Below, piece after piece: positions 3,178 through 10,908 of a stretch of DNA of 36,931 bases. The position numbers and the translations under genes were made by a program. This DNA is from Alphaproteobacteria bacterium. Lineage in GTDB: Bacteria > Pseudomonadota > Alphaproteobacteria > JAJTHO01 > CANGXP01. The stretch's first letter is position 1. The number at the start of each line of letters is the position of its first letter. A model generated the notes under the pieces. That model was not told where the DNA came from and searched no databases. It saw only the letters and a list, made by a program, of their open reading frames with translations. Location: positions 1 through 36,931 of the forward strand of contig JANMDF010000072.1 in NCBI GenBank assembly GCA_031376145.1, in the 5' to 3' direction.

Positions 3178-4746
3178 ATGTTATCCGCCACAACCAACAC
3201 TGCCGCGCTGACCGCGCAACGCTTCCTGGATCAATCCAGTTCAATGGCGTCGTCATCGATTGCCAAGATGTCATCGGGTTCCCGTATTGTTAAGGCTTCT
3301 GATGACGCGTCATCATTGGCGATTGGTAACAAGTTGCGGGCTGACATCTCTGCCTTGCAGCAGGCCACACGAAATGCCTCACAGGGTGCATCACTGTTGC
3401 AGGTTACCAACGGTGCTATTGACCGAATCGGCGATATTCTGACCCGGTTGAAAACCTTGTCTACACAGGTGGTGAACGGCTCACTGTCGACACCAGAGCG
3501 TCAGTTTGCCCAACAGGAATTTACCGAGCTGGTAACCCAGATTGACCAGATTTCTTCACAAACCCGCTGGAACAGTGTATCCATGCTGAACGGGGGTGAT
3601 AAAACCCTGGCCTCTACCAACACCCTTGGCTCAGACGTCAGTGCCGGCGTGTCCGGTGCCAGAGGCAGTGCAACACCAGGTGGTTATTTCAACCCGACTA
3701 CAGCCAGTAACGTGTTTAATACCTTTACTGGCACAGTTGATGGCCAGGCTAAAAGTGTAACAGTGGTGCAGAACGGCTCAGCCAACCAGTTTAAAATCAA
3801 TATCGAAATCGGTAATCAGACCTTTGAAGGCTATGCCTCATACAGCCAGGCCAGTGGTGGCAGTATTACGATGACCAGCACCACCAACAGCCATAATACT
3901 TTTAGAATTGTCAACAACGCGGCAGCCCTGGGTACCAGTGCGGCCACGCTGGAAAGTGACCTGGAAAGTGCGCTGTCTCTGGATACCACCACGTCGCCAC
4001 CGGCAAGTTTCCAATCAAAAGCATTAACGAATGCCAACGCTGCTGCCCTGCTGGAAGCAGGGGCGACCACACTGGGCAGTGTGATCACCGCTACCGGCGC
4101 GGCTGTGGATGGTATTTACAACCTGACCTCACGGCACGATACGGCAACGGGAACCACTACATTTCGTGTGCAGCATGAAGATGGCAGTGTGTATCAGGCA
4201 ACCCTGCCTAATGCCAGTACTGCCACGGGTCAGCAAACGATTGTTTTCAGCAATGGTACTGAATTGAAGCTCGCTGAAGCACAGGCTCAGGCAACCGCAA
4301 CAACAAACCTGGAAGGTGTACGTTTTGAAGTCACCCGTGGCTCAGCCACCACCATGGATTTCCAGGTTGGTGTGAAAGCCACGGATACGATTACCATCAG
4401 CTTTGTGGCCATGACCTCACAAAGCCTGGGGCTGGATGTCTTGAATATTGAGACGCAGGCGGGTGGTACAACGGCTTCAGCGGCGGTATCCGATGCGATT
4501 AACAAGGTAAACATTGCCCAGGCACAATTAGGGTCGATTCAAAGTCGAATGGAATATGTACAGAGCAACCTGTCAACCATCATCGAAAACCTGTCCGCTG
4601 CCAAAGGGATCTTCCTGGATGTGGATATGGCACGTGAGATGACTGAATTTACCAAACAGCAAACCCTGATGCAGGCTGGCGTTGCCATGCTGGCACAGGC
4701 CAACCAGATGCCACAGTCGCTGTTGCGACTGATCCAGGGTGGTTGA
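3178..4746 (+). CDS. fliC: Flagellin (long variable central domain)
   Basis: 522 aa. The conserved N-terminal D0/D1 reads SSGSRIVKASDDASSLAIGNKLRADISALQQATRNASQGASLLQVTNGA. The C-terminus reads AQLGSIQSRMEYVQSNLSTIIENLSAAKG...QQTLMQAGVAMLAQANQMPQSLLRLIQGG. The centre (~300 aa) is T/S/A/N-rich. Confidence 0.9.
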   Translation: MLSATTNTAALTAQRFLDQSSSMASSSIAKMSSGSRIVKASDDASSLAIGNKLRADISALQQATRNASQGASLLQVTNGAIDRIGDILTRLKTLSTQVVNGSLSTPERQFAQQEFTELVTQIDQISSQTRWNSVSMLNGGDKTLASTNTLGSDVSAGVSGARGSATPGGYFNPTTASNVFNTFTGTVDGQAKSVTVVQNGSANQFKINIEIGNQTFEGYASYSQASGGSITMTSTTNSHNTFRIVNNAAALGTSAATLESDLESALSLDTTTSPPASFQSKALTNANAAALLEAGATTLGSVITATGAAVDGIYNLTSRHDTATGTTTFRVQHEDGSVYQATLPNASTATGQQTIVFSNGTELKLAEAQAQATATTNLEGVRFEVTRGSATTMDFQVGVKATDTITISFVAMTSQSLGLDVLNIETQAGGTTASAAVSDAINKVNIAQAQLGSIQSRMEYVQSNLSTIIENLSAAKGIFLDVDMAREMTEFTKQQTLMQAGVAMLAQANQMPQSLLRLIQGG

Positions 4747-4836
4747 TACTGCTGGATAACAGGTTTCCAAGTTCCAAAAAGACTACTGCCTGGAATCAGG
4801 TGGCGTAATATCACATTGCTTTCCCCAAGCCCAAAA

Positions 4837-4867
4837 AACCTGGTGTTTCCCCACACCAGGTTTTTTT
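4837..4867. terminator. Bidirectional rho-independent terminator
   Basis: A perfect 10-bp stem (aacctggtgt 4837-4846 pairing with acaccaggtt 4853-4862) around a 6-nt loop. It is followed by a T7 run on the plus strand and preceded by an A6 run, which is a T-run on the minus strand. It can terminate both the flagellin gene and the minus-strand islet operon. Confidence 0.75.
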
Positions 4868-5003
4868 GGTTACACCGCTGGCATCAGTATGGTCAAAATT
4901 CTTTGCGAACTTTAATCCCGTACGGCTTTTGAGTGCTATATAGCCAATTGAATAATTGACTGCATACTTGCAGCAACACCGCGTAATTCCGGCCTGGCAG
5001 GCA

Positions 5004-5055
5004 TTACCCCCCTACGCAATCGTTGAGATACTTCCAGATTTGTATACTCGCGCAC
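5004..5055 (-). repeat. Degenerate third copy of the lepA 3' terminus (putative distal att remnant)
   Basis: The minus strand reads GTG CGC GAG TAT ACA AAT CTG GAA GTA TCT CAA ... GGGGGG TAA. The lepA end reads ATG CGC GAA TTC GGG AAT GTG GAA ATT CCG CAA ... GGGGGGG TGA. That is 20/32 ungapped nt, with REYTNLEVSQ against [10 protein letters not shown]. Both share the boundary heptamer tcgcgca and a C-run followed by a stop. An internal ~17-nt deletion is implied. On statistics alone this is only marginal; its position and orientation add weight. Confidence 0.4.
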
Positions 5056-5249
5056 CAGCCGTTCGGCCACTGCTTCACTGAGAGCACTGCGTCATGCCGA
5101 ATGCAGAAAGCATGCATTTGTAGGGTGTGGAACTGCTGCAAAATCGCCTGTTCAACCAGCAGTCCCTCAACGCGGGCGGCAATGGTGGTTTGTTCGGATT
5201 CGGGCAAGGTTTTGATGTAATCATCAAGGGAAATGGGGTTGTAGGACAT
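5004..5249 (-). pseudogene. Possible decayed XRE-type antitoxin/regulator ORF running into the lepA remnant
   Basis: 81-aa ORF with no SD motif. The N-terminus MSYNPISLDDYIKTLPESEQTTIAARVEGLLVEQAILQQ resembles the leader of small XRE antitoxins. The expected HTH appears only in the other two frames (AFGMTQ, then SALSEAVAERLV), which implies frameshifts. The 3' end is built from the lepA-like remnant read out of frame. Confidence 0.3.
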
Positions 5250-5260
5250 AAGCTAAATAA

Positions 5261-5704
5261 TTAAATTACAAGGCTAACATCAGGGATTTCCACAAACCAC
5301 TGTGCAAGGCGAGATATTTTTTTCTGGTTGGCTTTTGAGAACGTTCCCCAAACTTCGCCATGATAAGGATTTTCTGGTAGAGGATCATAACCAACCTGAA
5401 AACTCAATTCTCGCAATTTCCCAACATTAAGCAAAATTGAACCTGTAAATTTCGGATTACTGACAAACGTTTTTGCGTCAATTCCGTTTTGTTCAATCAG
5501 ATTTTTAAGATCAACGGACATGCCTCGATTGCCAATGCTCGAGGGCTTATAAAGCATAGAAGAAACTCGATGAGGAATGGCTGGTGGCGAAGGAAAGCAG
5601 GACTCCAAAGATACTCTTCTGATAACAAAGTGTTCATCAAGAATATCTTCATGATTGTGGGGAATTACTTCTCCATCAGCATTACGCGGCGGCGGCTTTA
5701 TCAC
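5261..5704 (-). CDS. Hypothetical 147-aa protein (candidate effector/toxin of the trio)
   Basis: GTG start at 5704, preceded by GGAGG 6 nt upstream. The start lies 23 nt inside the upstream ORF, which suggests coupling. I recognise no family. The sequence contains YKPSSIGNRGMSVD and PENPYHGEVWG. Confidence 0.6.
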   Translation of the reverse strand: MIKPPPRNADGEVIPHNHEDILDEHFVIRRVSLESCFPSPPAIPHRVSSMLYKPSSIGNRGMSVDLKNLIEQNGIDAKTFVSNPKFTGSILLNVGKLRELSFQVGYDPLPENPYHGEVWGTFSKANQKKISRLAQWFVEIPDVSLVI

Positions 5705-6194
5705 TGCTCGCCTCCACGGTTTCTGCGACCCATTTCAGAGCAGTCAAAAAATCATATTCTAAAAGTTGCTCCTCACCATCTTCACCCGTGCTAGGCGTAC
5801 AATGCCATGCTTTTACTTGGTTGGGAGCAATTATATGTAATTCGATATCTATGCCTTCTACATGCCACTCTATCTGCAGGTCACCGTTAAAACCTGGAAT
5901 AATGCTAGGCATTGTAGTATTCTCATTCGCACAAATAAGTCCTAATAGCTTTAGCGTAAAATGTGCATTAGGCGCACTTACAGGTCGCGCTCTGTATCCA
6001 TCCCATCCTACGGGAAGCTGCGCTAGGCTATAAACTCTTTCTATTGCATCATCAAACCACTCCAAGGGTGTAGTGGTCATCCTTAAGTATTGAGTATTAT
6101 TTAGGCGTGTAGGCACGTTTGAAGACCTATTGGAGCGGTCTATGGTAGATGTAGTGCAATCATCTGAGGCGGTACTATTAGAGTCTAACAACAT
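5682..6194 (-). CDS. Hypothetical 170-aa protein (WDGY-motif protein)
   Basis: The ORF track starts at TTG 6209. I prefer ATG 6194, which forms a TAATG stop/start overlap with the upstream gene and follows GGGGGAAG. Motifs are LPVGWDGYRARPVS and GFNGDLQIEWH, with an S/T/N-rich N-terminal tail. Confidence 0.6.
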   Translation of the reverse strand: MLLDSNSTASDDCTTSTIDRSNRSSNVPTRLNNTQYLRMTTTPLEWFDDAIERVYSLAQLPVGWDGYRARPVSAPNAHFTLKLLGLICANENTTMPSIIPGFNGDLQIEWHVEGIDIELHIIAPNQVKAWHCTPSTGEDGEEQLLEYDFLTALKWVAETVEASSDKAAAA

Positions 6195-7012
6195 TATTTC
6201 TTCCCCCAATGTCGGTGTGCCGCATCAGTGGTAATGGCATCAAAGTTCTGAACAATTAATTCACGCCCTTGTCCTAAAAATGCGATTGCGGCTTGTAGAG
6301 ATGACTCCTCAGGTTTTCCTCGAACAGTCATGTTTAGCCTTAATAATCTCTCGCCTTTTGCATTTACCGCGATTGCGCTTTCACAAATCAAACGTCCGCA
6401 AGGCTTATTATTTTTATCGTCTATTGTAATACGAAAGGTATGCTGAAAATCTGCCACTATCGTTTTTTTTTCAAGAAATGAAAAATCTAAAAATTTCAAC
6501 CATTTATTAGCGGTGATATTTTGGTTCTCAGGATGCTCTAACGGAATATGATTTATATAGGTAATTTCCGTTTGATTAATGTTTAAACCATTCCCATCAA
6601 ACCCCTTGAAAAATTCATCAAGCTTTCCAGCTTCTTGCGTAAATTTCGCAATGATACTTTCATAACGCGGATATGGTGTGTCATGCTCATCAATTTTTCG
6701 CCAATTATGCAAAAATCTATCATTCTGAAATTGAATGAGTTCATTTTGATCCCTTGATAGAAACCAAAAACGATCATGTGTAGCACCCGTTATCAAACCA
6801 AAGGGAGATTGTTCTATAGGAAAACCGAAATGCTCAAAAATTGGGGGGAGAGGATGATGCTCTTTTACATCTGGGTAATTTTCTTTATAAAGATTCCAAA
6901 CTTCTCCAGCATGAATTTGTTGATACCCTTGAGGGGTGCTGAACTGAATACCCAAAACAACCTCATGTAGAGGTGGTTTTTCATAATCTGGAAGGTGTGT
7001 GGGTCTACTCAA
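6194..7012 (-). CDS. TIGR04255-like uncharacterised protein
   Basis: The ORF track gives 6194-7045 with a TTG start. A better start is TTG 7012, with AAGGAG 7 nt upstream. The N-terminal PDYEKPPLHEVVLGIQF and the C-terminal FDAITTDAAHRHW resemble the TIGR04255 family as I remember it. Confidence 0.65.
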   Translation of the reverse strand: MSRPTHLPDYEKPPLHEVVLGIQFSTPQGYQQIHAGEVWNLYKENYPDVKEHHPLPPIFEHFGFPIEQSPFGLITGATHDRFWFLSRDQNELIQFQNDRFLHNWRKIDEHDTPYPRYESIIAKFTQEAGKLDEFFKGFDGNGLNINQTEITYINHIPLEHPENQNITANKWLKFLDFSFLEKKTIVADFQHTFRITIDDKNNKPCGRLICESAIAVNAKGERLLRLNMTVRGKPEESSLQAAIAFLGQGRELIVQNFDAITTDAAHRHWGKK

Positions 7013-7110
7013 AATAATGCTCCTTTTCTTTGCTGACTCTAACAAGAAAAAAGTTAAAAATATAGAGCCATTCAGTTATTTATATTGGCTGTGACTAAAA
7101 AGAAATGCAA

Positions 7111-7180
7111 TCTCACCCCCCCGTCTTCAGCACCTCAATAAACGCACTTTGCGGGATTTCCACATTCCCGAACGCGCGCA
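7111..7180 (-). repeat. Displaced copy of the last 22 codons plus stop of lepA (internal att-like repeat)
   Basis: A position-by-position hand alignment to 8468-8537 gives 65/70 identity. It translates as [22 protein letters not shown], against [22 protein letters not shown] in lepA. Confidence 0.9.
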
Positions 7181-7185
7181 GAATT

Positions 7186-8373
7186 TTAATTGAAATCCGG
7201 CATCACTCGTTTCAGGAATTCTTCAAATAACGGCACAGTAAAGGCTGTATCGCCGTGGGCAGGGCTGTAAATCATGCCTTTTTTGATAAGTTGTGCCCGC
7301 AGTGGCGCAATGCGGCTAACAGGCACATTCAATTTCTCGGCAATATCACCTGAACGTTGCGGCGTGCCGCCCAATTCCGCCAATGCTCGTACATAGCGCT
7401 TCTCGCTTGGCGTAAGGCGGTCGAAGCGTACACGGAAAAAGTCTTTGTCTAGTTTATTAATGGCGCGTGTTGTGGCGGTATCTATATCTTCCTTAGTGAT
7501 TTTCTTTGTGGATGCCACATTCCAGGCCTGATACCCCCACTCCTGCAAAAAATAAGGATAGCCTTTAGTAATATTCAGAATTTCTGTAAGTGCATCAGGG
7601 GTAAAGCTAACGCCTTGTTGCAGTACGGGCGCTTGTAGCGCCTGCATAGCGTCTGCTGCCAGTAATTGCCCTACTTGGGGGTAGGTAAACAGCCGTTCGG
7701 CATAAGACTTAGAATTGCCCGCTTTTCCCACCAATTGCGGCAGCCCTGCCCCCACCACTACAAGCGGCAACCCTTTTTGCGAGATGCGATGCACCGCCAT
7801 AATCAGTGCACTAAGTTCGGTTTCCTCTAAATATTGTAATTCATCAATAATAATGGCAATGCCCGTGTTGCGGCTGGCAGCAGCCTCACCTACGGCGATA
7901 AATAAATCGGCCAAGTCAAACTCTAAATCCCCGCTATCAGCCACCCCTTTTTCTGGTTCAGCAATGCTGAAGTCAAAAAGATCATATTTAATTTTGAACT
8001 TGCTGACAAAACTTTGCAGCACGCGCAATGCGCTTTTTACTTGCGTGCTAAGACGTTCCGCATTGTCAAGTCTTAGCAAAATACGCCGCAAGTGCGGCAT
8101 CAACAAGGCAGGGAGTTTTTTGTTACTTCTGTCTTCAATAGCCTCAATAAACGCTGTTTCATACCCCTTGGCGCGGGCGATATTCTCAATTTCATTGAGC
8201 AATACGGTTTTACCCACGCCGCGTAGACCCACCAGCAACATGCTTTTTTCGGCACGACCATTTTTAATGCGCTCCAACGCCACACGCGCCTGCTCCAGAA
8301 TTTCTTGCCGTCCTGCCAGTTCTGGCGGCGGTGTTCCTGCGCCCGGCGCAAAGGGGTTATGCTCTACGTCCAC
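7186..8373 (-). CDS. P-loop ATPase (ORC/Cdc6- or STAND-like AAA, PF01637/AAA_16 type) with a C-terminal wHTH-like region
   Basis: 395 aa with a GTG start. The N-terminal NPFAPGAGTPPPELAGRQEIL is typical of this ATPase class. Walker A is GLRGVGKT and Walker B is IAIIIDELQ. The C-terminal LTPSEKRYVRALAELGGTPQRSGDIAEKLNVPVSRIAPLRAQLIKKGMIY looks like a wHTH. Confidence 0.8.
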   Translation of the reverse strand: MDVEHNPFAPGAGTPPPELAGRQEILEQARVALERIKNGRAEKSMLLVGLRGVGKTVLLNEIENIARAKGYETAFIEAIEDRSNKKLPALLMPHLRRILLRLDNAERLSTQVKSALRVLQSFVSKFKIKYDLFDFSIAEPEKGVADSGDLEFDLADLFIAVGEAAASRNTGIAIIIDELQYLEETELSALIMAVHRISQKGLPLVVVGAGLPQLVGKAGNSKSYAERLFTYPQVGQLLAADAMQALQAPVLQQGVSFTPDALTEILNITKGYPYFLQEWGYQAWNVASTKKITKEDIDTATTRAINKLDKDFFRVRFDRLTPSEKRYVRALAELGGTPQRSGDIAEKLNVPVSRIAPLRAQLIKKGMIYSPAHGDTAFTVPLFEEFLKRVMPDFN

Positions 8374-8392
8374 TATACAAACCTTATGAGGA

Positions 8393-8421
8393 ATTATAAG
8401 AGTTATCTTATGTATTAGTAA
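8393..8421 (-). promoter_or_regulatory. Candidate sigma-70 promoter of the ATPase gene
   Basis: On the minus strand: TTACTA (8421-8416), a 17-nt spacer, then a perfect TATAAT (8398-8393). It lies about 20 nt upstream of the GTG start, within a very AT-rich spacer. Confidence 0.4.
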
Positions 8422-8467
8422 GATTGATAATATACTATAATATTGCTATAAGTGGCAAGAGATTTTT

Positions 8468-8537
8468 TCTCACCCCCCCGTCTTTAGCACCTCAATAAAC
8501 GCGCTTTGCGGAATTTCCACATTCCCGAATTCGCGCA
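8468..8537 (-). repeat. Functional lepA 3' terminus, the proximal copy of the 70-bp repeat
   Basis: See 7111-7180. It covers the last 22 codons, the TGA stop and 2 nt beyond it. Confidence 0.9.
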
Positions 8538-10269
8538 TTTTCTTCTTTCCTTTTTTCTGTTTATCCAGCAGCTTACGCTTTCTTGTTACATCACCACCAT
8601 AACAGCGCGCCAGCACATCTTTGCGGAAGGCCTGCACCGTCTCACGGGCAATAATTTTCGCACCAATCGCGGCTTGAATGGGGATTTTGAACTGGTGCTG
8701 CGGCACCAGATCTTTCAGTTTTTCACACATCGCCCTGCCCCGCTTTTCAGCGGCAGACTTATGAACCAGAATCGACAATGCATCAACAACATCACCATTC
8801 ACCATGATAGACAGTTTACATAAATCGCCTTCCTGGTAGCCATCCAGGTGATAATCAAAGCTGGCATAGCCACGGCTGACAGACTTCAGGCGATCATAAA
8901 AATCAAACACCACCTCATTGAGGGGCAGTTTATAGACCAGCATGGCGCGTGTGCCGGTATGGGTCATGGTTTCCTGCACCCCGCGCCGTTCGGTGCACAG
9001 TGTCAGAATATTGCCGATATATTCATCAGGCACAAAGATGGTGGCCTTAATCCAGGGTTCTTCGATGGTGGCTATCTGTGATGGATCTGGATAATCGGCA
9101 GGGTTATGCAGCTCATAACTCTTACCGTTGGTTTCGGTAATGCGGTACACTACGCTGGGGGCGGTAGTGATCAGATCCAGGTTAAACTCGCGCTCCAAAC
9201 GCTCCTGAATAATTTCCAGGTGCAGCAACCCCAGACACCCGCAACGAAAACCAAAGCCCAGCGCCGCCGAAGAATCCGCCTCATACTGAAAACTGGCATC
9301 GTTCAGTGCCAGCTTGCCTAAACTATCGCGCAAATCCTGAAAATCCGCCGCATCCACGGGAAACAGGCCACAGAACACCACCGGCGTTGATGGCTTGAAC
9401 CCATCCAGCGGCTGTTCCACAGGTTTTGCTTCCAGGGTAATCGTATCCCCCACCCGCGCATCAGCAATTTCCTTAATGCTGGCGGTCAGAAAGCCAATCT
9501 CACCGGCATTCAACGCTGCCACATGCAGGGCTTTTGGTGTAAAAATACCGACTTTATCAACGGTATGGATGGCACCCGTGCCCATCATCAGAATTTTCTG
9601 ACCGCTTTTCAGCACACCACTGACAACCCGCACCAGAATGACCACACCCAGATATTTATCATACCAGCTGTCAATCAGCAGGGCTTGCAGCTTGTCTGTT
9701 GTGGGTTGTCTGGGGGCAGGCAGACGGTGAACAATCGCCTCCAGGGTCTCTTCAATACCAATGCCACTTTTAGCGGAAATCAACAGGGCATCAGAGGCAT
9801 CAATACCGATCACATCTTCAATCTGCTGTTTAATGCGCTCTGGTTCAGCGGCAGGCAGATCAATTTTGTTGAGTACGGGGACAATCTCATGGTGATTGTC
9901 AATGGCCTGATAGACGTTGGCCAGCGTCTGCGCCTCCACCCCCTGGCTGGCATCCACAACCAGCAAGGAGCCTTCACAGGCTTTGAGCGACCGGCTCACC
10001 TCATAGGCAAAATCCACATGCCCGGGCGTATCAATGAGATTCAACTGATACGTCTGGCCATCTTTGGCTTTATAGGTAAGACGCACGGTTTGTGCTTTGA
10101 TTGTAATGCCACGCTCTTTCTCAATATCCATTGAGTCAAGAACCTGCTCGGTCATTTCCCGGGCTTCCAACCCCCCGCAATGCTGAATAAGCCGGTCGGC
10201 CAAGGTGGATTTACCGTGGTCAATATGGGCGATGATGGAGAAGTTACGGATATGAGAGATGTCGGTCAT
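8470..10269 (-). CDS. lepA: Elongation factor 4 (LepA)
   Basis: [27 protein letters not shown]..., then DTPGHVDF and NKID GTPase motifs. The length from ATG 10269 is about 599 aa. The track ORF extends to 10518, but that leader overlaps brnA and is not LepA-like. Confidence 0.95.
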
Positions 10270-10292: not shown

Positions 10293-10604
10293 TTAGCGAG
10301 GCAAGGCAGGGAAATCGTCCCCGCGCCATTTTCCATTCTGCTGTCGTTCTTCGCTGATTTTCTCCTCCAGCAATATCTTCATCAGCGATTGATACGGCAC
10401 ATCGCGTTTGTTGGCCATCACCTTCAGTGCATCCAGAAGATGTGCTGGCAGGCGAAGAGAGATGGTGTGGGTAGAGGGTTTGAGGTTTGGAAAAACAGCA
10501 GAAGCCGCGCTTGTCCAAGGAATATAATCCGTGGAATCATGGGTTTGCCAGAAGGCATCTTCTTCTGCCTCTGTATTAAAAAGTGGGGGGTGTTTTTTGC
10601 GCAT
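10293..10604 (-). CDS. brnA: BrnA-like (CopG/RHH-type) antitoxin
   Basis: Starting at ATG 10604: [28 protein letters not shown]...[34 protein letters not shown]. This is the typical BrnA layout. It overlaps the brnT 3' end by 29 nt. Confidence 0.7.
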
Positions 10605-10908
10605 ATATAGCCCTCTCTTTGCGGTGCATATCGCGCAGCGAAATGATGCGCAGAAAATTCTCTCTGACCGTGAAGACCACAAACAATAAACGTCCGGCGT
10701 TTGTTTGTCCCAAGGCGTAATACCGTAGTTCTGTTGAAGAGTGTCTTGCGTCATCCCCCACCACTAGAGGGCTGTTAAAAAATACTTCTTCAGCCTCTGC
10801 ATTGCGTACCCCATGTTTATCCAGGTTCTTGCGGGTATTGCCTTCATCCCACAAGAACCCTTCGGCCGTGAAGGGCAAAAAAAATCGCGACACCATTGTT
10901 GTATACAA
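10576..10908 (-). CDS. brnT: BrnT-family (DUF497) toxin
   Basis: FLWDEGNTRKNLDKHGVRNAEAEEVFFN...[43 protein letters not shown] matches the BrnT/DUF497 signature (WDxxKxxxNxxKHGV...ER...R.ISAR). ATG 10896 is an alternative start. Confidence 0.8.
   Translation of the reverse strand: MYTTMVSRFFLPFTAEGFLWDEGNTRKNLDKHGVRNAEAEEVFFNSPLVVGDDARHSSTELRYYALGQTNAGRLLFVVFTVRENFLRIISLRDMHRKERAIYAQKTPPTF

Follow-up and report, generated by a model that had tools for sequence, protein, structure and literature searches.

The window analysed here, a stretch of 36,931 nucleotides, is contig C69 of a 1.7-Mb alphaproteobacterial metagenome-assembled genome (MAG; 88% complete), and the element in question is a single AAA+ ATPase gene that lies behind lepA, framed by two copies of the lepA terminus (Table 1). 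A repeat search returned this terminus as the only direct-repeat family in the window, with copies of 81 nt that are 88% identical, and blastn aligned a 62-nt core at 95.2% identity (E = 1e-23). There are two copies in total: blastn found no further one in the window, and there is none elsewhere in the 1.7-Mb MAG. A candidate third, degraded copy near position 5004 was rejected, as the best local alignment there scored at the level of the null. The last 68 nt of lepA fall inside the proximal copy, while the distal copy is still readable as protein over 21 letters and runs on into a low-GC islet downstream. Between the copies lie only the 83-nt AT-rich leader, the 395-aa open reading frame (ORF) of the ATPase and 5 nt; a preliminary description of this DNA had claimed both this framing and the 5-nt distance from the ATPase stop codon (TAA) to the repeat, and both were borne out. 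The AAAAT of the 5-nt joint is also found in lepA immediately ahead of the repeat, a possible microhomology. We propose that the ATPase gene is an autonomous one-gene cassette that probably reached its site behind lepA by homologous recombination, with a spare gene end as the homology and no recombinase involved.

Table 1. Features of the lepA-ATPase region of the window
Feature	Position	Strand	Description
lepA, anchor gene	8470-10269	minus	599 aa + stop; Pfam GTP_EFTU, EFG_C, LepA_C
Proximal copy B	8457-8537	minus	Working lepA 3' end: last 22 codons, TGA and ~13 nt beyond
AT-rich leader with promoter	8374-8456	minus	83 nt; -35 TTACTA 8421-8416, 17-nt spacer, -10 TATAAT 8398-8393
AAA+ ATPase	7186-8373	minus	GTG start, TAA stop, 395 aa; AAA_16/ATPase_2, lid, C-terminal winged helix
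Joint, ATPase stop to distal repeat	7181-7185	minus	5 nt
Distal copy A	7100-7180	minus	Displaced, untranslated lepA terminus, +1 frame relative to the ATPase

A structure prediction, run to classify the ATPase and its C-terminal domain, yielded an Orc1/Cdc6-like AAA+ protein with a winged helix. The AlphaFold2 model, built from 51 homologues (pLDDT 92.3, pTM 0.90), has an AAA+ base, a lid and a C-terminal winged helix, which is the architecture of Orc1/Cdc6. The top Foldseek matches were archaeal Orc1/Cdc6 structures (2v1u, 2qby, and 1fnn; E about 1e-11, TM 0.46-0.50), the PF01637 protein PABY2304 (2qen) and RuvB, and the nearest solved chain by sequence is ORC4. In Pfam, the protein belongs to AAA_16 (PF13191; 59.6 bits versus a cut-off of 32.6) and scores marginally above the cut-off of ATPase_2 (PF01637; 34.8 versus 33.2 bits), with a weak MarR-like match at residues 320-372. 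Its best NCBIfam match, TIGR02928 (Orc1/Cdc6), covers residues 16-69 only and reaches 28.4 bits against a cut-off of 181.3. The ATPase resembles Orc1/Cdc6 but falls outside the Orc1/Cdc6 family. Walker A (GLRGVGKT), Walker B (IIIDELQ) and a C-terminal segment resembling a winged helix-turn-helix had been read from the sequence before; the ORF, Pfam and the model agree with all three, and every family-invariant residue is present. The earlier assignment to an ORC/Cdc6 or STAND (signal transduction ATPase with numerous domains) type, PF01637/AAA_16-like, held for the Orc1/Cdc6-like fold and for both Pfam families but not for STAND. Three core domains fill the 395 aa, and nSTAND5 (21.2 versus 34 bits) and nSTAND6 (18.6 versus 27.7 bits) stay below their cut-offs. 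The confident model leaves no room in 395 aa for a nuclease, recombinase, sensor or effector domain.

We also rejected a known anti-phage system: the best match in PADLOC-DB was mad8 (26.9 bits, E = 8e-7), a partial AAA match, and the ATPase has no recurrent partner. Weak cross-matches to AAA_14 (E = 5e-5) and to the PADLOC candidate PDC-S01 (E = 2e-3) were seen as well. The conflict-system context that had been suggested for the gene found no support: ordinary housekeeping genes flank it, and none of the PADLOC families is a convincing match. Defence against invading DNA is a guess for the cellular role of the ATPase, conceivable but doubtful.

To turn to the leader, the promoter TTACTA-17-TATAAT reads as previously described, but a consensus scan instead lists TTGCCA-18-TATATT (8458-8429). 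An inverted repeat, ATAAGA-TAAC-TCTTAT, overlaps the -10 box. Across the family, AAGTTAT occurs in the upstream DNA of 27 of 86 loci versus none of 150 controls, and AGTTTAT in 26 versus none. The type of motif tracks the protein clade, with GTATAAC in one clade and GTTTAT/TAAACT in another. Approximately 130 nt upstream of the gene stay AT-rich, 15-30 GC points below the gene itself, even in hosts of 60-70% GC. The leaders of the three nearest homologues contain palindromes of 17-38 nt; in one of them (G009, a genome of the same order but another family), the 11-nt spacer between the palindrome arms contains the -10 box. Because the motif type co-varies with the protein clade, we predict an autoregulated DNA-binding protein. 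Judged from these sequences, the ATPase most likely binds, in an ATP-dependent manner, the iterons or palindromes that overlap its own promoter, and so regulates itself. On a Dehalococcoidia chromosome (L121), there are three copies of the iteron/promoter block: a tandem pair upstream of the gene and a single one after it (4823-4995 and 6334-6455). The closest homologue of all (L008, 78% identity) sits between two 70-nt double-hairpin palindromes that resemble repetitive extragenic palindromes (576-648 and 2171-2243) and are not a host-gene end.

The family is large. At E <= 0.001, 7991 clusters (50% identity) match the ATPase, 966 of them at E <= 1e-30; the majority of the best 150 clusters have a protein length of 380-410 aa. 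A genome scan gave 593 loci, and the best 80 span more than 15 phyla at 53-66% identity. Carriage is patchy: of 41 genomes related to that of the window, only 5 have the gene. Phyla are intermixed on short branches in the family tree, and the GC content of the gene tracks that of its host, from 36% to 70%. No neighbour or partner gene recurs across 85 loci; the 130 flanking ORFs are housekeeping genes by their Pfam families, and the 25 commonest of these families include neither an integrase nor a transposase. Homologues occur in 122 of 72,556 plasmid records, and all 30 records listed are large (58 kb to 2.5 Mb); on the two plasmids examined, the gene lies within accessory regions. One phage record matches. 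A small-plasmid replicon or a phage gene was rejected on these counts. The patchy carriage, the phylum-mixed tree, the absence of a recurrent neighbour and the few plasmids mark the ATPase gene as a lone, horizontally spread and slowly evolving gene. The claim of a minimal unit, one gene plus a promoter, gained from this survey: the same gene and a conserved upstream block stand alone in at least 85 unrelated contexts. A possible cooperation with the neighbouring trio of genes found no support. TIGR04255, the family of the gene next to the distal repeat, does not recur beside the ATPase, in line with a separate acquisition of the two. Among the carriers are many amoeba-associated or intracellular lineages (Holosporales, Coxiellaceae, Berkiella, Legionella plasmids, Parachlamydiaceae, and Rickettsiales). 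We flag the family for its abundance and striking conservation: lone Orc1/Cdc6-like ATPases in ~8000 clusters and more than 15 phyla, each with what appears to be a co-evolving operator. A literature search returned no specific description of this ATPase family, of lepA-end brackets or of lepA as an integration site.

The preliminary description had asked whether homologues also occur as solitary genes between repeats of a host-gene end, and they do. We defined a bracket as flanking direct repeats of at least 50 nt and compared the 67 loci that have enough flank with shifted control intervals. Brackets surround 8 of the 67 ATPase loci versus 2 of 242 control intervals (Fisher p = 1e-4). Besides the window, they are formed by the 3' end of lepA in G009 (L034; 142 nt, 99% identity), the 3' end of a PALP enzyme gene (L070; 192 nt, 82%), the 3' end of a GFO/IDH/MocA oxidoreductase gene (L064; 156 nt, 88%), the 3' end of a convergent slyX (L099; 126 nt, 94%), the start of holA (G001, L021; 54 nt, 98%), a non-coding stretch (L118; 315 nt, 91%) and the cassette's own leader (L121; 122 nt, 97%). 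The distance from repeat to gene varies, from 56 to 437 nt upstream and from 0 to 258 nt downstream, which argues against fixed cassette ends and a transposase-like mechanism.

Two of these loci are informative in their own right. At holA, a same-genus pair provides an empty site: G002 has one uninterrupted copy, and G001 has copy-cassette-copy, the cassette being a paralogous one; both genomes belong to the taxonomic family of the window's genome. In G001, the two copies differ at a single position out of 54 nt, and the host's own variants are present in both. Meanwhile, L070 holds three copies of the PALP gene end (3733-3924, 5533-5724, and 7550-7739), diverged but readable, around two different lone genes, the ATPase and an AlbA_2/HATPase_c_4/HTH gene. 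This three-copy locus is a case of accretion, in which cassettes are stacked at one gene end. The third copy of L070 sits fused behind an unrelated N-terminal fragment.

How the two copies of a bracket differ bears directly on their origin. We pooled the five coding brackets and compared the proportions of non-synonymous and synonymous sites that differ between copies (pN/pS). Differences fall at 40.8 of 145 synonymous and 24.2 of 518 non-synonymous sites, a pN/pS of 0.17 (window 0.08, G009 0, L070 0.17, L064 0.16, and L099 0.27), and the three L070 copies give 0.17-0.28 at a pS of 0.54-0.69. Decay in place, or patching by gene conversion, predicts a value of about 0.5 and is rejected (binomial p = 8e-6; p = 4e-5 without the window). 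By this substitution pattern, the copies are diverged alleles of the host gene end. Since pN/pS is low, most of the divergence arose while each copy was a working gene end, in different lineages. The low value therefore argues against target duplication by a staggered cut and favours the idea that a spare gene end came in along with the cargo.

In this order, what lies 3' of lepA varies: depending on the genome, the ATPase, glycosyltransferases, a SIR2_2-domain gene or others occupy the slot. G009 has lepA, 96 nt, the ATPase (77% identity), 20 nt and then the final 142 nt of lepA repeated, with junctions that are identical in two independent Logan run assemblies. This lepA-ATPase-repeat unit lacks the trio that lies beyond the repeat in the window, which sustains the earlier claim that the ATPase was acquired separately from it. 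MAGs of the G004 type carry the ATPase (72%) behind lepA after two glycosyltransferase genes and without a repeat; L010 likewise has two glycosyltransferase genes at the lepA 3' flank (3614-5916). In G007, a SIR2_2-domain gene begins at the lepA stop (L036 2806-3939), and G001 and G002 have other small genes there. The lepA protein of the window is 91% identical to those of same-family genomes and 77-78% identical to the rest of the order, including 77% to lepA of MAGs named Holosporales; a sliding identity comparison showed no mosaic lepA from a distant donor. The last 150 nt of the gene are among its best conserved (84% within the family, 79% to G009, and lower in the other two genomes of the order), and it is this conservation that makes lepA suited as an anchor. 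Outside the order, a Verrucomicrobia MAG (L058, Opitutaceae) has the ATPase 155 nt from the lepA start, divergent and without a repeat (~810-2707), which may be chance.

An old vertical linkage of lepA and ATPase could account for part of this picture, with the repeat duplicated in situ, kept alike by gene conversion and often lost by repeat-mediated deletion. The adjacency is found in three genera of the order, the four ATPases of the order form one clade (support 98), the divergence of the ATPase (77%) matches that of lepA (78%), and the DNA of the window and G009 is collinear from lepA through the ATPase; the host-specific variants in both holA copies of G001 point the same way. We nevertheless consider this reading unlikely. 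The inter-copy pN/pS rejects decay or conversion in place, and a non-functional copy of 81-142 nt would not stay 95-99% identical over family-level divergence. The repeat of the window (81 nt) and that of G009 (142 nt) also have different lengths and joints. Furthermore, G001 and G002, which belong to the same family as the window's genome, lack the gene at lepA and have only 53-60% paralogues elsewhere, and the tree within the clade departs from the grouping of the genomes.

An integrase is the other obvious source of such an arrangement, because integrase islands are classically recognised by direct repeats that restore the 3' end of a conserved gene. The ATPase could be what is left, after accretion and deletion, of an island whose own integrase, or one acting in trans, targets the lepA 3' end with an attP that mimics the terminus. 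Besides the rebuilt lepA end, the variability of the lepA 3' flank across the order fits this remnant, and the MAG encodes two phage-type tyrosine recombinases of 400-420 aa on other contigs. Against it, a tyrosine recombinase search of the 36.9-kb window found none, nor is there a recombinase among the 25 commonest flanking families. The same cargo is bracketed by the ends of five different host genes that share no attachment (att) site or core, the repeats of the window and G009 differ in length and junctions while resembling their own lepA, and a random leftover would not always be exactly one gene and its leader. The locus thus has the direct repeats at a conserved gene end that mark a genomic island or its remnant, but neither a cognate recombinase nor a shared att core, and we regard this origin as distinctly unlikely. 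An integron gene cassette was rejected, as the ATPase comes with a promoter of its own and the repeat consists of lepA coding sequence rather than a palindrome.

We therefore return to homologous recombination through a spare gene end. The cassette would carry along an extra copy of a conserved host gene's end and insert behind lepA by recombination within the last ~70-80 nt of that gene, with no element-encoded recombinase; afterwards, one copy would complete the host gene and the other would stay beyond the cargo. Two routes can be envisaged. First, a circular molecule of gene end and cassette could enter by a single crossover, as in Campbell-type pop-in/pop-out. Second, a linear molecule could use the gene body as its left arm and the distal copy as a portable one on the right, so that the recipient's downstream DNA would be irrelevant. 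Recombination between the copies would excise the cassette precisely and restore lepA, and deletion of this kind could explain the patchy distribution. RecA and ComEC are encoded in the MAG. The 'mobile' cargo of the preliminary description would then mean relocation by host recombination; self-mobility of the gene found no support.

Several observations weigh against this route. First, 88% of the loci have no bracket, and the model leaves unexplained the bracketless loci, the first bracket at a new gene and the DNA carrier between cells. Second, RecA-type recombination is inefficient between segments of 60-190 nt that differ by 5-18%. Third, the allelic test of the window itself comprises 5 differences, with the pooled pN/pS dominated by L070 and L064, and the G001 case fails to separate allelic import from a long target duplication. 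Fourth, pattern scans of metagenome contigs found no empty lepA site and no circle junction, near records possibly lying outside their scope. In addition, the adjacency of lepA and ATPase in three genera at similar divergence could be inherited, and the palindrome in the window leader is weak, with none of at least 8 nt.

The ATPase might also drive its own spread. In this account, an Orc1/Cdc6-like initiator and its iterons would constitute an integrated mini-replicon, firing either in place or as an excised circle and thereby making the flanking duplications as well as the circles that re-insert. The fold beside an AT-rich iterated block mirrors archaeal orc1-origin pairs, the leader block of L121 is present three times and brackets are enriched at the ATPase gene. 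The confident model has no nuclease or recombinase domain, however, plasmid homologues are as scarce as given above and large where listed, and the iterons overlap the promoter as operators do. Episomal circles were rejected too: the 1.45-kb contigs lack a terminal overlap and are pieces of longer contigs, so that such short, 1.4-kb contigs are fragments and not circles. Self-driven spread is, in our judgement, quite improbable. A bolder version would have the mini-replicon pop out between host-gene ends, persist or amplify as a circle and re-enter genomes that share the gene end, a recombinase-free mobile element of a new class; we hold this to be improbable, but if it were true, the bracket would be a mobility device and the ATPase would promote its own spread.

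Finally, the brackets could be assembly artefacts of strain mixtures in metagenome bins, given that the window and most loci come from MAGs and that the relatives' contigs break at or near the repeats. The repeats that an assembler creates are exact, whereas the copies here differ by 1-24%. The G009 joints are the same in both run assemblies, and contigs of 100-360 kb as well as a 3.5-Mb chromosome contain brackets too. An artefact is thus very improbable.

Homologous recombination through a spare gene end is the reading we favour, and bracketing by host-gene ends in several phyla suggests that small genes can spread by homologous recombination without a mobile-element enzyme. It would be a route by which a single gene enters beside housekeeping genes without a transposase or integrase, backed by a statistical test and an empty site. 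The same route could explain many 'orphan' insertions and variable slots near conserved genes such as lepA.

The surroundings of the cassette hold further small genes. The low-GC (39-44%) islet extends from the flagellin terminator to the distal lepA-end copy (4870-7099) and has no bracketing repeat. On its minus strand it carries genes for a 283-aa TIGR04255 protein (6194-7045) and a 175-aa protein (5682-6209), together with ORFs of 147 and 81 aa; the 175-aa protein resembles the C-terminus of the PADLOC candidate PDC-M32A. Directly upstream of lepA, the window has a BrnT/BrnA toxin-antitoxin pair (10293-10908). In G009, a BrnT-like gene and a small partner adjoin lepA in the opposite orientation (L034 9-621), and a metagenome contig has a BrnT gene after an ATPase homologue (L129 2598-3105).

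Among known systems, archaeal Orc1/Cdc6 (2v1u, 2qby, and 1fnn) and PABY2304 (2qen) are alike in having ~390 aa, three domains and intact Walker A and B motifs, and archaeal orc1/cdc6 genes likewise lie next to an AT-rich block of iterated sites. The ATPase here differs from archaeal Orc1/Cdc6 in being bacterial, transferred across phyla, patchy and non-essential, and in scoring 28 bits against the 181 of TIGR02928; its iterated sites overlap the promoter, and the evidence gives an origin function no support. Lone AAA_14/DUF4143 ATPases (COG1373; PDC-S01) are comparable as single-gene, self-regulated Arch_ATPase-like cassettes with weak cross-matches to ours, but the ATPase of the window belongs to another family, with no DUF4143 domain and no nuclease-like module.

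As for the arrangement, the repeat-cargo-repeat layout, in which the incoming molecule brings one repeat, is that of Campbell-type integration (suicide-vector pop-in/pop-out) and of IS26 translocatable units. These share with the cassette both the layout and excision by recombination between repeats. In the ATPase loci, a piece of a housekeeping gene serves as the repeat in place of vector or insertion sequence (IS) DNA, and the carrier molecule is hypothetical. Two further hallmarks of Campbell-type integration were found, namely copies that read as diverged alleles and, for the paralogous cassette at holA, an empty site in a close relative. Cis-mobilizable elements (CIMEs) are integrase-less derivatives of gene-end islands. 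The islands themselves are mediated by an integrase and include SGI1 at trmE (PMC8409611) and the dusA islands (PMC4482086). Like the cassette, they insert at a conserved gene end with direct repeats that keep the gene intact, and tandem accretion is possible, as at L070. The cassette, however, has no integrase and no common att core, its repeat is a diverged allele of the local gene and its cargo is a single gene. Minimal mobile elements (MMEs) of Neisseria (Saunders and Snyder 2002, as cited in PMC3787668) are, in the account given there, variable cargo between conserved genes that is exchanged by homologous recombination in the flanks, without mobility genes. The lepA 3' flank shows the same combination of variable content, a fixed slot by conserved genes and no mobility genes. 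MMEs are flanked by two distinct conserved genes and lack a repeat, whereas here the duplicated end of one gene would be the second arm, so that the downstream context would not need to be shared. The insertion thus resembles both gene-end islands and Neisseria MMEs, and is distinct from them in its lack of an integrase and its duplicated single anchor.

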